In this document: piece by piece, positions 12,914 to 49,806 of the stretch
Layout: every line of letters begins with the position of its first letter
Numbering within the stretch: the stretch's first letter is position 1
Sequence record: NC_049827.1
DNA: 51,154 bases
Strand: one strand, 5' to 3'
Origin: Escherichia phage damhaus
Notes under the pieces: generated by a model
The model's database searches: none
The model's input: the letters and a program-made list of their open reading frames with translations, nothing else
Told to the model about the DNA's origin: nothing
Translations under genes and position numbers: made by a program

Positions 12914-13141
12914 TTACAGACTGCAATCAGCGTTTTTAAAGTTGTCAATGCTTACCCACTGAAAATTAAACGGATAGCCAGCCTTAACAAGAGTGCGGTC
13001 GCCAACTCGTTTTACTCCAAAAATAGCAACTGAATACTGCATACCGCTATTTTCATAAATAGCCGTGCATTCACGTTTAGGCATATTTGCGCAACCAGTC
13101 ATGGTTACGGCTGCAATCAAAACGGCGATTAATTTTTTCAT
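12914..13141 (-). CDS. small outer-membrane lipoprotein, putative superinfection-exclusion (Cor/Llp-like)
   Basis: 75 aa with signal peptide and lipobox (MTGC); convergent with receptor-binding-like genes as in T1/T5-type phages. Confidence 0.55.
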   Translation of the reverse strand: MKKLIAVLIAAVTMTGCANMPKRECTAIYENSGMQYSVAIFGVKRVGDRTLVKAGYPFNFQWVSIDNFKNADCSL

Positions 13142-13196
13142 CTTGGTATCTCCTTCGTTGTTGTTGGTTGCAACTATACACGATCTTACAGCAGGC

Positions 13197-13217
13197 GTTT
13201 AGCAAAAAGTGCTATTC
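13197..13217 (-). promoter_or_regulatory. conserved intergenic box, degenerate copy
   Basis: reverse complement reads GAATAGCACTTTTTGCTAAAC; on the minus strand followed by TATAGT and the leader/RBS of the lipoprotein gene. Confidence 0.5.
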
Positions 13218-21518: not shown

Positions 21519-21992
21519 TTAGCAATTAGTGCTTTCAGGTTTATACAGGAATCCGCCAGGTTCATAATCTGACATTCTTACCACTCGCAACATTTCACGC
21601 TTATCACATCTCTTTGTGAGCGGTTTGCCATTGGAATCAAATCGCAGGTCTGGACGACAAAATGATGCGCGATAACCTTGACAGCCATACTTTTTATAAT
21701 CATTGTGCACCTTTTGAGCGCCAGCGGCTGAAATCATACCGCGAACGCGCCACTGATTTACAGTTTGCTGGCTAACGTTAAGACGTTTTGCCATTGCTGA
21801 TACACTTCCGTAATACTCAATAAGGATGTCAAGGCGCGCTTTTAGTCCGGCGCGAACTTCATCTTTTAAAACATAGTATCCTGTAGGGCGCTTGCGCTTT
21901 TTCTTATCTTTACCCCGTCGAGTTCCGTTGTTGCCATTAATTGTGCGCTTGTCAATCTTGCCAGTTGATACGGCGATCCGCTGTTCTTTCAT
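21519..21992 (-). CDS. HTH-domain DNA-binding protein (putative transcriptional regulator)
   Basis: 157 aa; predicted helix-turn-helix SVSAMAKRLNVSQQTVNQW; very basic N-terminus; divergent from helicase gene. Confidence 0.55.
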   Translation of the reverse strand: MKEQRIAVSTGKIDKRTINGNNGTRRGKDKKKRKRPTGYYVLKDEVRAGLKARLDILIEYYGSVSAMAKRLNVSQQTVNQWRVRGMISAAGAQKVHNDYKKYGCQGYRASFCRPDLRFDSNGKPLTKRCDKREMLRVVRMSDYEPGGFLYKPESTNC

Positions 21993-24127: not shown

Positions 24128-24533
24128 TAAAGGCGATTATCTGGAGTTTTACGAAAGAGATCCGACAGATACGCTAAAAGAGGAATCTCACCAGATCGGG
24201 GCGTTTCAATGGTTAACTTATGCTCATCCTGAATTACTGGCATGGCATACGAAAAACGAGGGCGACAAGGGGATCGCCACCGCAATGATGGATCAGCAAG
24301 CTGGGCTTGTTAAGGGCGTAAGTGATTTTATCATCCTGATTGGATTAAAAGGTCGTTACCCGTTCGCGGCAATTGAGATGAAGCGCGTCAATAAGTCCGG
24401 CAAGGGTAAGGCTTCACCAGTCAGCAAGGACCAAAAAGCCTTCTTGCGTCGTGTGCGTGAGCTTGGCGGATTCGCTGCCGTAACATACGGATATAAGCAA
24501 TTCATGATCGCTGTAGAATACATGATGAAATAG
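24114..24533 (+). CDS. VRR-NUC-like PD-(D/E)xK nuclease
   Basis: 139 aa with D...E-x-K pattern (GVSDFIIL...AIEMK). Confidence 0.55.
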   Translation: MAMTDKGDYLEFYERDPTDTLKEESHQIGAFQWLTYAHPELLAWHTKNEGDKGIATAMMDQQAGLVKGVSDFIILIGLKGRYPFAAIEMKRVNKSGKGKASPVSKDQKAFLRRVRELGGFAAVTYGYKQFMIAVEYMMK

Positions 24534-25569: not shown

Positions 25570-25625
25570 GCCCGGCCTTGTGTCGGGCATAATTATTTCA
25601 TCAAAACGAACAAGAGGAAAACAAA

Positions 25626-28732: not shown

Positions 28733-28793
28733 GATGTTTTCCTTCTGGTCGTTTCGTCTCGATGAAACAAATATACCCGATACGAGATCGGGT

Positions 28794-28815
28794 GTTTTAA
28801 CAAAAAGTGCTATTC
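28794..28815 (-). promoter_or_regulatory. conserved intergenic box copy
   Basis: minus strand reads AAATAGCACTTTTTGTTAAAAC overlapping the TAG stop of gene 28810-29004. Confidence 0.7.
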
Positions 28816-30909: not shown

Positions 30910-30960
30910 TGATGATAACTCCTTTTTGATGCGGCAATAATACCGCACCAATGCTACCCG

Positions 30961-30982
30961 CATTTAACAAAAAATGCTATTT
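30961..30982 (-). promoter_or_regulatory. conserved intergenic box copy (one mismatch)
   Basis: minus strand AAATAGCATTTTTTGTTAAA overlapping the TAG stop of gene 30977-31198; followed by hairpin containing TATTAT. Confidence 0.6.
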
Positions 30983-31636: not shown

Positions 31637-31658
31637 CTTTTAACAAAAAGTGCTATTT
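31637..31658 (-). promoter_or_regulatory. conserved intergenic box copy
   Basis: minus strand AAATAGCACTTTTTGTTAAAA overlapping the TAG stop of the methyltransferase gene; followed by GCCAGG...CCTGGC hairpin and CATAAT. Confidence 0.7.
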
Positions 31659-34220: not shown

Positions 34221-34460
34221 TTAACCATGTTTAACGGCATCCAGAACATCACAGGATTCGTTAATAAATTTTGCCATGCGCTTATCATCACCAACAGGTA
34301 TTAGCGCGTTACACTCGCGTTCGCTACTGAACACTGTCACTTTATGGAATGATGCGAAAGGCATCGACGGGAACTCGACTGTTTGCCTCAAGATCCGCAA
34401 CCCCATCTTTTTGGCCCTTACCTGGGCCTCTGCAAGTTCAAAATCCACTTCGCTAATCAT
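34221..34460 (-). CDS. hypothetical protein
   Basis: 79-aa ORF with AAGGAG RBS. Confidence 0.55.
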   Translation of the reverse strand: MISEVDFELAEAQVRAKKMGLRILRQTVEFPSMPFASFHKVTVFSSERECNALIPVGDDKRMAKFINESCDVLDAVKHG

Positions 34461-34729
34461 TTCTTGATCTCCTTAGCAATAAACTTCAATACCTTGCGCA
34501 AAAATACCTCGTTGTTGATGGTCGCTGGCAATTCTTCTTTCACTTCTTGCGGCAGGTAAATATTGCCGTGCCAGGTTAGGCAATCGTAGTTGATACGATA
34601 AGAGCAAAGCCACTCGCAATCGTTATCAGCTTCCCAAATGCAAAGCTGCATTACGTCGCCAAAATCTTCAACAGTCAGTTCCAGACCATGACGCTTTGCA
34701 AAGTTGAAGGTGGTTTTGCTGATGTTCAT
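34457..34729 (-). CDS. hypothetical protein (first gene of minus-strand block)
   Basis: 90-aa ORF; GGAGA RBS; Cys-rich (CxxxxxxC...C...C). Confidence 0.55.
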   Translation of the reverse strand: MNISKTTFNFAKRHGLELTVEDFGDVMQLCIWEADNDCEWLCSYRINYDCLTWHGNIYLPQEVKEELPATINNEVFLRKVLKFIAKEIKK

Positions 34730-34790
34730 TGCTATCTCCTGATTGGTATCTCGTTTCGATGAGATAACTATACCAGGTTATTCCGATCTT

Positions 34791-35877: not shown

Positions 35878-36126
35878 ATGAGCAAACTTACTCTTGATGA
35901 ACTGATGGAAAAAATTGATGAAGTGGGCTTTAACAAACTGGTTGATTTCCACTTGACCGCATGTGAAATCACCGCGCAGGAGTTTAGCGAAATGCTATCT
36001 GATGCGAGCGAGATTTACACAAGCCTATGCGGAAGAGAAATCAAAGTCATTGAAATTGAAATGCCTGGAGATCCGGTATTTGCAAGGCTTGTGGCTGCAT
36101 TCGATGAGGAGAATGTTGGACTCTGA
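35878..36126 (+). CDS. hypothetical acidic protein
   Basis: Start at Met29 of track ORF (GAGGA RBS); 82 aa. Confidence 0.5.
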   Translation: MSKLTLDELMEKIDEVGFNKLVDFHLTACEITAQEFSEMLSDASEIYTSLCGREIKVIEIEMPGDPVFARLVAAFDEENVGL

Positions 36127-36130
36127 GCGG

Positions 36131-36152
36131 AAATAGCACTTTTTGTTAAAAC
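36131..36152 (+). promoter_or_regulatory. conserved intergenic box copy
   Basis: AAATAGCACTTTTTGTTAAAAC followed by GCCAGGC...GCCTGG hairpin, AATAAT and conserved leader. Confidence 0.7.
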
Positions 36153-36209
36153 GCCAGGCGCAAAGCCTGGAATAATAGCCTCATCGAAACGAGATTGAGG
36201 AAAACAAAA

Positions 36210-36395
36210 ATGGCACGTCGCATCACCAAAGACCTTAAAGTTCTGAACAAAGAAAACGTAGTTAAAATCCTGGTTATCTGGGGATACAACGAAGAAACAG
36301 CAAAGCAGAAGGTAGAAGCAGGTTATGAGCTGGCTGTAAAAGCAATGCCAAACGACGACGCAAAAGGCATTGCAAACTATGTAGCTTTCTTTTAA
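36210..36395 (+). CDS. hypothetical protein
   Basis: 61 aa from the ATG after the conserved GAGGAAAACAAAA leader. Confidence 0.5.
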   Translation: MARRITKDLKVLNKENVVKILVIWGYNEETAKQKVEAGYELAVKAMPNDDAKGIANYVAFF

Positions 36396-36596: not shown

Positions 36597-36617
36597 ATAG
36601 CACTTTTTGTTAAAAAC
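36595..36617 (+). promoter_or_regulatory. conserved intergenic box copy
   Basis: AAATAGCACTTTTTGTTAAAAAC overlapping the TAA stop; followed by CATAAT. Confidence 0.7.
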
Positions 36618-36696
36618 GCCAATCTGAAAACCTGGCATAATGCATCACATAGGGCGGCACGGCGTCGCCCAGTTAAACCAATCAGGAGAAAGTACC

Positions 36697-37017
36697 ATGT
36701 TAAAACTTGCTGACATTAAATTCCCGATCACCTTCGAATCTCGCGGCGTTGGTCATTACACATTCACAGATAAGAACACTTGCCATCAAGTCTACATGTA
36801 TAGCGACAAGCCAGAGCCATCAACAATGAAGATTGAGGACTTCATTGATAAGCACAACAAGCACTACAATTCGCTAAAAGATTATGGATACGCAATGCCA
36901 GGATACACCTGTTTGCACTATAAGCCATATAAGGGCCAGGTGTTACCAGTGCGCTCAACGGAACGCGCAGAGATTCATACGGTAGATATGAAAACCTGCG
37001 ACTACAAAAAATTGTAG
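36697..37017 (+). CDS. hypothetical protein
   Basis: Start at Met20 of track ORF with AGGAG RBS; 106 aa. Confidence 0.5.
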   Translation: MLKLADIKFPITFESRGVGHYTFTDKNTCHQVYMYSDKPEPSTMKIEDFIDKHNKHYNSLKDYGYAMPGYTCLHYKPYKGQVLPVRSTERAEIHTVDMKTCDYKKL

Positions 37018-37026
37018 TGCTTAAGC

Positions 37027-37605
37027 GTGGATAATATCAAGTATCCGATTGTTTTTCATTGTGGCGGTTCAACAATCAGGTTCACATCGCGCGACAATGG
37101 CGTTTATAGCGATGGTCAGAAATCAGAGTTGAAAGTTGATTTCTTTGTTAATGGTCACAACAAATTCAATCCGCACAATGAAACTGGCAATGTGTACTAC
37201 GTGGAAGACATTACAAAACACTTGTTTGGGGAAACACCATTCGGCGGCGGGAAGACGTCAATTCAACAAATCATTGGCGAGGAGATCCACAAGGCAGCCG
37301 TTGAAATGAAAGCGCCTGGAGGCTGTAAGATTGATAAAATCGACCTTATCACCATTCGCTCAAAGATTGGCGGAGTTGAATACGAGGGCAAAATTGAAAA
37401 AATGCCGCTCGGCGCTTCAATTATCGGCATCAAAGACGACAACGGCGATTGGCATGATGTTTCTTTCCCGATCAAGCGTATCGAAGTTCTCGACGACTTG
37501 ATTTGCCTCCTGGCGCATCATGGCAGCTATAAGAACAATCCGTTCTCCGCAGAGCTAAACATCAAGCGCGGAACGCTGGTTAAGTGGAAGGTTAAGTGTA
37601 AATAG
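37027..37605 (+). CDS. hypothetical protein
   Basis: 192-aa ORF; only possible start is GTG without a clear SD; ends inside a box copy. Confidence 0.45.
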   Translation: MDNIKYPIVFHCGGSTIRFTSRDNGVYSDGQKSELKVDFFVNGHNKFNPHNETGNVYYVEDITKHLFGETPFGGGKTSIQQIIGEEIHKAAVEMKAPGGCKIDKIDLITIRSKIGGVEYEGKIEKMPLGASIIGIKDDNGDWHDVSFPIKRIEVLDDLICLLAHHGSYKNNPFSAELNIKRGTLVKWKVKCK

Positions 37606-38078: not shown

Positions 38079-38614
38079 AAAAATACGAATTTGAACTTTG
38101 GGGAAGCAAATACCATTTTTCCACTAGCAAGCCGATTGTTATTGTTGACCTTGACGGCACGTTATCAGATGGAACGCACCGCTTGCACCTGCTGCCGACA
38201 GAAGATTTGCACCTTACAGAAAGCTGGTCTGAGTTCAACAAAGCGGCTGTTGGCGATTCGCCGATTAAGAGCACGGTTTCAGTGGTTAACGGATTGTGGA
38301 TGTCAGGATTTGCCATCGTTATCCTGACAGGGCGCAGCGATGAGGTGATGGCTGACACCTGCGACTGGTTAAATTATAACGGCATCAAGTACGACGCGTT
38401 AATCATGCGCCGAAAGGAAGATAACCGAAAAGACACGATCATCAAAGAGGAAGTCTTGCGAGCTATCGGACTGGAAAACATTGTGTGCGCTTTTGATGAT
38501 TCGCCGAACGTGGTTAAGCACTTCCGCAGCCTGGGAATCACAACCTATCAGGTCACGGAATACGAAAAGCCACATAATCACATCCAATCGCACGGCGTGG
38601 ATGAATTAAAATAG
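38075..38614 (+). CDS. HAD-superfamily phosphatase (polynucleotide 3'-phosphatase-like)
   Basis: DLDGTL (DxDxT) motif near the N-terminus; start at Met5 overlapping the upstream stop. Confidence 0.6.
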   Translation: MKKYEFELWGSKYHFSTSKPIVIVDLDGTLSDGTHRLHLLPTEDLHLTESWSEFNKAAVGDSPIKSTVSVVNGLWMSGFAIVILTGRSDEVMADTCDWLNYNGIKYDALIMRRKEDNRKDTIIKEEVLRAIGLENIVCAFDDSPNVVKHFRSLGITTYQVTEYEKPHNHIQSHGVDELK

Positions 38615-39381: not shown

Positions 39382-39972
39382 ATGAAAAGAGACATTATCA
39401 TCCTTAACGGACCGCCAGGGGTTGGCAAGGATACGCTTGCGGCATACTTAACGGGCCATCGTTACGCAGCCGTTAAAGCGTCGTTTAAACAGCCTATGTT
39501 TGATATTGCGTTTTCCATGCTTGGCGTTTACCGATATGACGAGTTCATTGATCTGTATAACGACCGCGAGCAGAAAGAAAAGCCTCAAGCAATCTTGCAA
39601 GGCAAGTCGCCTCGCCAGTTCATGATCTGGATTAGCGAAGAAGTTATGAAGCCAGCTTTTGGCGAGCAATATTTCGGAAATCGCATGGTTGAGCAAGTAC
39701 ACGAGATGTACAGAGATTTAGCTGTTGTAATTAGTGATGGCGGATTCCCTGAAGAAATCAAACCGCTCGTTAAGGCAGGCCATGAAGTTCACATTTGCCG
39801 ACTGCATCGCGAAGGCTTCACGTTTGATGGCGATTCACGAAACTATATTGACCTGAGCGGATACCATCACCGCGTAAAACATTACGACTTCACAATGATT
39901 GATGGCGATCAAGAAAAGACTGTTGACGAGATCATCAAAACGGTCCAGTGGAAACACATTAAGATCAAATAG
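39382..39972 (+). CDS. P-loop nucleotide kinase (dNMP kinase-like)
   Basis: GPPGVGKDT Walker A near the N-terminus, a GKDT-type motif as I recall it from phage dNMP kinases; start at Met6. Confidence 0.55.
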   Translation: MKRDIIILNGPPGVGKDTLAAYLTGHRYAAVKASFKQPMFDIAFSMLGVYRYDEFIDLYNDREQKEKPQAILQGKSPRQFMIWISEEVMKPAFGEQYFGNRMVEQVHEMYRDLAVVISDGGFPEEIKPLVKAGHEVHICRLHREGFTFDGDSRNYIDLSGYHHRVKHYDFTMIDGDQEKTVDEIIKTVQWKHIKIK

Positions 39973-49787: not shown

Positions 49788-49806
49788 GTTTAACAAAAAA
49801 TGCTAT
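49788..49806 (-). promoter_or_regulatory. conserved intergenic box, inverted degenerate copy (late region)
   Basis: GTTTAACAAAAAATGCTAT on + strand upstream of the major capsid gene, followed by a hairpin and RBS. Confidence 0.5.

Follow-up and report, generated by a model that had tools for sequence, protein, structure and literature searches.

A conserved leader segment in a T1-like phage is probably the start site and initially transcribed sequence of a PeSL-like promoter cassette

Repeated box elements in the genome of Escherichia phage damhaus (NC_049827.1; the whole 51,154-nucleotide (nt) stretch is called the window here) are followed, as at 36153–36209, by a 5′ leader that a first-pass annotation of the letters had described as conserved. 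Here we report that the conserved segment belongs to the promoter and not to the ribosome-binding site, and that it probably comprises the start site and approximately the first 12 transcribed bases (A+1 TCGAAACGAA) of a promoter/terminator cassette resembling the promoter-early stem-loop (PeSL) cassettes of T4-type phages. The segment has a fixed position relative to the −10 hexamer, is under purifying selection, is unstructured as RNA and recurs in several phage families, and mosaic junctions lie at the edges of the cassette. Transcription in T1-like phages would start at the A of the segment, which could then influence initiation and promoter escape. The window covers nearly the whole genome of a T1-like siphovirus (about 51 kb; Drexlerviridae) with 92–95% identity to Escherichia phage aaroes and Shigella phages pSf-1 and ESh4, so that the cassette would be a PeSL-like element in a different phage family.

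Conservation fixed to the −10 hexamer

The box consensus ATAGCACnnnTTGnTAAAA occurs in the window in 16 copies at three or fewer mismatches, against 0.03 expected, and in 18 copies at four or fewer. Aligned on the box, the units share one order: box, a variable, hairpin-forming 19-nt spacer, a TATAAT-like hexamer, five C-rich bases and C(−1)A(+1)TCGAAACGAA, with the CA lying 5 nt past the hexamer and followed by TCGAAACGA. Between copies, the 19-nt spacer and the 5-nt discriminator show no similarity. We scored the segment from C−1 to +12 at this fixed position with a weight matrix trained on T1-like units from outside the window, and 9 of the 18 units exceeded the window-wide 99.9th percentile (the nine start modules in Table 1), bearing out the claim that the leader is conserved downstream of many box copies. 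Seven of the nine matches of at least 12 bits in the window likewise lie at the fixed position behind box promoters. A plain count of the 11-mer at two or fewer mismatches is not enriched window-wide (21 versus 17.8), because the signal is positional. Among the eight examples cited in the first-pass annotation, seven hold and the one at 13141 is weak (CAACAACAACGA), although CAACAACAACGAA, one base further downstream in that unit, scores 9.7; the units of 30909 and 41389 were missing from its list. The units of 37675 and 40043 contain CA...CAACGA only.

The leader had been described as one conserved stretch, of which only the start-module half stands. The 'GAGGAAAACA' half is the Shine–Dalgarno (SD) sequence and an A-rich spacer, nothing more, and an alignment anchored on the ATG shows conservation of only the SD at −12 to −9 and a general A-richness. 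Relative to the −10 hexamer, by contrast, +2 to +11 is conserved; the similarity therefore extends beyond the SD, and the view of the unit as a promoter–leader module is upheld.

A larger sample gave the same picture. From T1, TLS, Rtp and KP36 and at least 120 box-containing viral-contig loci, we collected 625 unique units, and the motif is present in all four of these Drexlerviridae lineages. In the 618 units selected by box register only, with no filter on the −10, G(−14) reaches 83%, the hexamer reads T.67 A.86 T.73 A.60 A.54 T.86, and C(−1) (68%) and A(+1) (79%) are followed by T C G A A A C. A A. The 125 units left after removal of orthologues and of similar spacers have unrelated genes and spacers and the same consensus, with T at only 5–9% from +4 to +17. 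In 174 of 272 units, AACGA occupies either of two neighbouring positions past the −10, while its distance to the ATG ranges from 12 to 30 nt, and its position is unchanged in leaders of at least 30 nt. The +2 to +12 score is tied to the CA start (7.86 versus 1.33, p = 1e-8) and independent of leader length, the mode of which is 24–26 nt from predicted start to ATG. Motif strength is unrelated to the extended −10 and weakly linked to box subtype (TTT, GAA or other). Given this σ70-type layout, in which the A of CAT would be the first transcribed base, the 'leader' would consist of a start site together with an initially transcribed sequence (ITS).

Upstream of the start, the 3′ part of the box, TTGTTAAAA, aligns with TTGTTGACA of the RB49 PeSLs, a sequence that holds the −35 element; in this alignment the box TTGnTAAAA matches TTGTTGACA with a spacer to the −10 of 19 nt, not 17. 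Canonical σ70 promoter-like sites are fewer between 24000 and 42000 of the window than in shuffled sequence (22 versus 36.1 ± 6.7). The spacer forms a hairpin in 120 of the 125 independent units, lying inside the spacer in 55 and across the −10 in 65 (mean ΔG −9.6), and the stem-loop of the 36210 unit probably attenuates transcription arriving from upstream. Together with the T-rich −10 and discriminator, the hairpins at 25570–25588 (+), 28775–28793 (−) and in most other units score as intrinsic-terminator-like, that is, as a terminator embedded in the promoter, and the T1 record labels several of them rho-independent terminators. The upstream open reading frame (ORF) ends at a TAG or TAA within the box in most T1 units and in at least 9 of the 18 units of the window; the stop codon is part of the box, and the gene end and the next promoter therefore overlap. 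The TAG occupies box positions 2–4 and the TAA positions 15–17, and such stops lie at 24531–24533, 37603–37605, 38612–38614, 39970–39972, 28810–28812, 30977–30979, 31653–31655, 21519–21521 and 13199–13201.

Table 1. Features of the unit at 36133–36210 and start modules of other units in the window
Feature	Position	Strand	Box	ATG	Score	Remark
Upstream box ATAGCACTTTTTGTTAAAA	36133–36151	+				Known Drexlerviridae 21-nt direct repeat
Spacer stem-loop CCAGGC-gcaaa-GCCTGG	36154–36170	+				Box/−10 interval; PeSL-type; −15.3 kcal/mol for 36126–36182
−10 hexamer AATAAT	36171–36176	+				TGG directly 5′ (extended −10-like TG)
Discriminator agcct	36177–36181	+				Variable, C-rich
Start module CATCGAAACGAGA	36182–36194	+	36133	36210		C(−1) A(+1) TCGAAACGAGA; core of the finding
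Predicted transcription start	36183	+				A
Shine–Dalgarno GAGGA	36197–36201	+				Followed by A-rich spacer to ATG
Downstream gene	36210–36395	+		36210		61-aa DUF7421 protein
Start module CATCAAAACGAAC	25599–25611	+	25550	25626	13.3	
Start module CATCGAGACGAAA	28752–28764	−	28813	28732	12.1	
Start module CATCAAAAAGGAG	30919–30931	−	30980	30909	11.7	
Start module CACCGAAACGAAA	31595–31607	−	31656	31581	14.5	
Start module CATCGACAACGAA	33873–33885	−	33934	33859	12.7	
Start module CATCGAAACGAGA	34749–34761	−	34810	34729		Leader and gene homologous to RB49p194 and its PeSL leader
Start module CATCGACAACGAA	38660–38672	+	38611	38686	12.7	
Start module CATTGAAGCGAAA	41362–41374	+	41313	41389	10.7	
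Weak variant CCAACAACAACGA	13155–13167	−	13215	13141	1.2	

Several other boxes and leaders depart from this pattern. The unit with the box at 36597 has a 49-nt leader (36636–36699, +) without the start module, in which a GC-rich hairpin (GGGCGGCACGGCGTCGCCC) precedes CCAATCAGGAG and the ATG; this leader may be an attenuator or represent a separate leader class. A second recurrent block, (A)CCAATCAGGAG or ACCACTTAGGAGAATCAA, is anchored on the ATG (standard deviation 0.7 nt) and is common to T1-like phages and RB49, lying at 34735–34746 (−) and 36675–36685 (+) of the window and in leaders of T1, TLS, KP36 and RB49. Box copies also oppose structural genes at 2376–2394 (−) and 49788–49806 (−), with counterparts in T1 (18850(−) and 15086(−)) and TLS (15042(−)), and their places, past the major tail gene and ahead of the major head gene, are conserved. 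Past the box at 2394 come a weak −10 and, within about 15 nt, a strong bidirectional terminator hairpin (AAAAAAAGGGGCGCAACGCCCCTT), and this copy could specify a very short antisense RNA or reflect an orientation-independent role of the box. The gene at 21519–21992 (−), which adjoins the helicase gene and is flanked by divergent boxes at 21535 (−) and 22006 (+), encodes a 157-residue protein with a weak match to Cro/YdaS-type helix-turn-helix (HTH) proteins; it is the counterpart of T1 gp23, a 'transcriptional regulator', and a candidate box-binding factor.

Selection, cassette exchange and other phages

Many copies per genome, some with leaders nearly identical over 20–30 nt, could be the mere trace of recent duplication of one promoter–leader unit without selection, as the first-pass annotation had considered. 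Across 26 orthologue groups, the pairwise diversity of +2 to +11 (0.061) resembles that of the −10 (0.053), the box (0.046) and the CA (0.026), and lies below that of the spacer (0.143), the discriminator (0.144) and codon position 3 (0.141). The leader thus retains about 40% of the variation of neutral-like sites (Wilcoxon p about 0.002), with the strongest constraint on the A's of the motif and more variation at its C and G positions: the start module is under purifying selection. We reject recent duplication, which is almost certainly wrong, since spacers and discriminators within the units are unrelated, the leader is constrained among orthologues, and the motif persists across four Drexlerviridae lineages and turns up in phage families unrelated to them.

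Genome comparisons place mosaic junctions at the ends of the unit. Where two genomes share the downstream gene and differ in the upstream one, 118 of 148 pairs show similarity starting at the 5′ edge of the box. Where they share the upstream gene and differ in the downstream one (289 pairs), the similarity ends in the box or the spacer in 66 and in the leader/SD/ATG zone (+60 to +80) in 181. The motif might accordingly be mainly a patch of homology, kept because cassettes with consensus ends are copied and exchanged, with no role in expression. The clustered junctions favour this account, as do a gene with its leader common to the window and RB49, an identical 22-nt leader standing before unrelated genes, and PeSL crossovers mapped between −10 and ATG (PMC2839356). 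Against these stand the length of the patch, since 12–20 nt offers very little sequence for homologous exchange; the constant spacing of the motif from the −10 and the CA start, which recombination alone does not require; the presence of the motif at the single phi80 PL promoter, without a cassette array; and the resemblance to T7 A1 and A3, which recombination leaves unexplained. A pure homology patch is, in our judgement, very unlikely.

Outside the Drexlerviridae, a BLAST search with the unit matched RB49, a T4-type Krischvirus. The RB49 PeSL early promoters combine a canonical TTGACA-17-TATAAT with the same discriminator and start module (for example, CATAATacaccCATCGAAACGAGATTGAGGAAATAAAGATG), and with the T1-derived matrix 12 of approximately 19 RB49 PeSLs score above the 99th percentile. 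One RB49 PeSL leader, CATCGAAACGAGATTGAGGAAA, is identical to 36182–36203 of the window at 22 of 22 positions, although the downstream proteins are unrelated; elsewhere, the product of the window gene at 34457–34729 shares 61% amino-acid identity with RB49p194, and the leaders of the two genes are homologous. KP15, a T4-like Klebsiella phage (Slopekvirus), has two T1-type units (NC_014036, 10042–10075 and 10386–10425) consisting of ATAGCAC/ATAGCATTTTTGTTAAAG, a hairpin, a −10 and CATCGAAAC, which are annotated as 'putative middle promoters'. In phi80, the end of the annotated O-L region (PL) reads TTGACC-17-TTTAAT-tactc-CATCGAAACGAAAC and continues into a boxA-like sequence, with gene N about 410 nt downstream.

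We scanned viral contigs for the 14-mer CATCGAAACGAAAC and found at least 113 matches outside box loci. A hexamer of the form xAxxxT lies exactly 5 nt upstream in 82 of the 113 viral matches listed, compared with 0–11 matches at each neighbouring offset from 0 to 9 nt and 25 and 14 matches at offsets 10 and 11; the hexamer-bearing matches represent 20 of 44 independent sequence contexts among the matches listed. In bacterial and archaeal genomes, one per species and used as the negative control, the 14-mer matches are essentially all attributable to chance, and the hexamer accompanies 3 of the 119 listed. The same start sequence at the same distance from the −10 in RB49, KP15 and phi80 thus looks like a working promoter part, not a feature of ribosome sites or a recent copy.

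The largest group of viral matches is the early leader of phi80-like prophages (contig L181, 5940–6300 (−); phi80 X13065, 369–480). These leaders share about 60 nt past the start, ATCGAAACGAAACATCGACAGCTGAGCGAAGTTAGCCAGCGGCGGACAGCAAGTCGCCTGCTTTTTAACAAC, with two small hairpins and a boxA-like TGCTTTTTAACAA; their upstream operator and −35/−10 regions diverge widely, and Rfam gave no match for the leader. High-GC viral contigs (L131, L169 and L214, two copies) contain ctgTAGACT-N5-CATCGAAACGAAACG with an ATG within 2–6 nt and no SD; another phage group may thus have promoters of its own that combine the same start module with very short leaders.

RNA-level readings and the role in initiation

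The leaders are less structured than expected. Their minimum free energy (MFE) averages −1.8 kcal/mol (mean z +0.49), 81% are less structured than their shuffles (p = 2e-10), and the leader at 36183–36224 has an MFE of −1.5 and z of +1.54. The consensus structure of the leaders contains zero pairs, and Rfam had no match across the whole window. The mini-palindrome TCG-AAA-CGA showed neither a dyad nor significant covariation (p = 0.2, 0.03 and 0.07 for +2/+10, +3/+9 and +4/+8). With no conserved structure, covariation or Rfam match, we reject a structured cis-regulatory RNA (riboswitch, attenuator or RNase III site), and the RNA processing or structured site once suggested for the leader finds no backing.

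As a translational enhancer or standby site, which the first-pass annotation had also proposed, the unstructured A/C-rich 5′ end would recruit the 30S subunit or S1 and boost small early genes. The leaders are indeed short, so the motif lies within reach of the ribosome; they are A-rich as well as weakly structured, and CA-rich variants such as CAACAACAACGA exist. The placement of the motif, however, is tied to the −10 and not to the ATG, and high-scoring matches outside box promoters, window-wide, do not adjoin SDs. Complementarity to 16S rRNA is ordinary, with a longest run of 6 where shuffled leaders typically have 7. S1 prefers A/U-rich RNA, unlike these leaders, in which U makes up 5–9%. 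Copies also lie far from any ORF, as in phi80, where the motif opens the PL leader at the distance from gene N given above, and in related prophage leaders, which carry it about 280 nt before the first ORF. An SD-linked enhancer of the epsilon or S1 type is disfavoured on these grounds, and we regard an enhancer role in general as quite unlikely.

AACGAT of lambda PR′ exemplifies the σ70-dependent promoter-proximal pause element (for context, PMC4005639), a −10-like hexamer with A at position 2 and T at position 6 inside the initially transcribed region. The T1-like units resemble such elements in having an AACGA-containing sequence within the first 10 transcribed bases, but their consensus is AACGAA or AACGAG, without the T that the hexamer needs at position 6, and they lack the context of a Q-like antiterminator. 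With +6 to +11 reading AACGAA and T at most 9% there, a σ70 pause element is ruled out.

We therefore return to the promoter reading. The segment 36153–36209 would be the core and downstream half of a repeated cassette for early-gene expression. In this cassette as we propose it, which runs from the box through the 19-nt hairpin spacer, the TATAAT-like −10, the 5-nt C-rich discriminator and the CA start to a leader of about 25 nt, the SD and the ATG, host σ70 RNA polymerase would initiate at the A of CAT, 7 nt past the −10. A T-poor, A-rich and hairpin-free ITS may permit fast escape from a strong promoter, and the unstructured 5′ untranslated region would leave the SD accessible. As a secondary role, the box and the start/SD region could serve as short patches of homology for cassette swaps among T1-like phages and between them and T4-type phages, as for PeSL cassettes. 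The ITS is known to alter promoter output by orders of magnitude (PMC5961368), and T5 N25 is a model of ITS-controlled escape (PMC12464699, PMC5961368). In randomised ITS libraries, escape is slow with two to three T's in the first approximately seven bases and with TG near +5/+6 (PMC5961368); the motif's only T is at +2, and +6/+7 is occupied by AA.

Several observations count against this interpretation. T at +2 slows escape at lacUV5 (PMC5961368), the consensus has CG steps at +3/+4 and +8/+9, and motif strength does not vary with −10 quality (rho about 0). The box is not a canonical −35, its TTGTTA lying 22 nt and its TTAAAA 19 nt away from the −10, and a σ70 consensus scan calls none of the box promoters. 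A literature search found no mapped transcription start or transcriptome for T1-like phages or Drexlerviridae, and the predicted +1 derives from the −10 spacing and from analogy with RB49. Phylogeny links the orthologue groups and the junction pairs, which are not independent samples. Moreover, ITS effects on escape are normally degenerate, and a near-identical 13–14-mer in unrelated phages seems more specific than escape would need.

Conservation more exact than escape predicts makes a sequence-specific host or phage factor possible. Such a factor would bind either the DNA of +1 to +12, which would then serve early shut-off as an operator or roadblock, or the nascent RNA at its 5′ end, as a stabiliser, nuclease or repressor. 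This account would explain why 13–14 nt are conserved in sequence across unrelated phages beyond any generic constraint on composition; the motif core, moreover, is a tandem GAAAC-GAAAC, and the window encodes the Cro/YdaS-like HTH protein described above. The motif nonetheless has no dyad symmetry or covariation, its A's are more constrained than its C and G positions, and no known factor matches; to our knowledge, Drexlerviridae, Straboviridae and the lambdoid phage share no regulator. We consider a factor-binding site unlikely.

A broader interpretation of the start module, for which we claim less than for the cassette, is that C|AUCGAAACGAAAC might be a discrete, portable promoter element downstream of +1 that is read sequence-specifically. 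Its reader, again tentatively, could be the RNA polymerase of the host, or else a host factor whose target is either the initially transcribed bases or the 5′ end of the RNA. If so, it would have been independently kept or acquired by T1-like phages, the T4-type phages RB49 and KP15, phi80-like lambdoid phages and some high-GC phages, and in part by T7 A1 and A3. Phage early promoters would then contain a hitherto unrecognised consensus element that is no by-product of common descent. The motif string was not found in the relevant literature, and conservation of the start module across families appears to be undescribed in the literature found.

Comparison with known promoters and repeats

The box corresponds to the 21-nt direct repeat aaATAGCACnnnTTGnTAAAA of TLS, T1, Rtp and Rogue1, which lies approximately 76 nt ahead of start codons (PMC11447400). 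The 2024 TLS re-annotation, in its accessible text, lists only three σ70-like promoters and leaves the role of the repeat open between stoperator, enhancer and UP element (PMC11447400). Repeat and box agree in consensus and in co-orientation with genes, and the box at 36133 lies 77 nt from the ATG at 36210. The accessible part of that paper covers the 21-mer only, with no mention of a −10, a CA start or a conserved leader (PMC11447400).

PeSLs are known from the T4-type phages RB49/phi1, PST and nt-1 (Arbiol et al. 2010, PMC2839356; Comeau et al. 2014, PMC4122927). As described there, a PeSL begins at an upstream stop codon in an AT-rich stretch, contains a σ70-like promoter with a GGGG...CCCC-type stem-loop between −35 and −10 or over the −10, and ends with SD and ATG (PMC2839356, PMC4122927). 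Like PeSLs, the T1-like units are intergenic and repeated, extend from an upstream stop codon to the SD and ATG, carry a G/C-run stem-loop that separates the upstream element from the −10 or spans the latter, precede small ORFans, sit at mosaic junctions and have the same start module, with CATCGAAACGAGATTGAGGAAA identical over 22 nt in RB49. They differ in occurring in an approximately 51-kb siphovirus of the Drexlerviridae, not in the hyperplastic regions of T4-type myovirus genomes, and in replacing TTGACA-17 by ATAGCACnnnTTGnTAAAA and a 19-nt spacer. The PeSL papers, in their accessible text, do not single out the −10-to-SD segment as a conserved element. In lacZ fusions, RB49 and phi1 PeSLs are reported there to be very strong promoters with terminating stem-loops (PMC2839356); promoter and terminator activity and mini-circle formation are known by experiment only from RB49/phi1, whereas the T1-like units are known from sequence. 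The RB49 early consensus is consistent with 5′-end mapping (PMC1524935), an agreement that would, by analogy, lend indirect support to the start assigned in the T1-like units.

T1-like phages are common, and both phage therapy and research on defence systems make use of them. If the assignment holds, repeat, −10, CA start and ITS would together provide a testable promoter map of approximately 18 units per genome and connect the Drexlerviridae with the shuffling that PeSLs undergo in T4-type phages; the module would also bear on how the ITS tunes promoter output and could offer a compact natural part for strong expression cassettes.

Early promoters of other phages show related starts. The annotated T7 starts are ATCGAGAGGGA (A1) and ATGAAACGACAG (A3), and the T1-like units share ATCGA with A1, GAAACGA with A3 and all 14 bases with phi80 PL (ATCGAAACGAAAC). 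The ITSs of T7 A1, T7 A3, phi80 PL and T5 N25 have none of them been described as a shared element. T7 A1 and A3, phi80 PL and the T1-like units are alike in a start at the A of CAT approximately 7 nt past the −10, and the same start sequence behind the −10s of RB49, KP15 and phi80, and in part of T7 A1 and A3, suggests that phages have selected a particular ITS.

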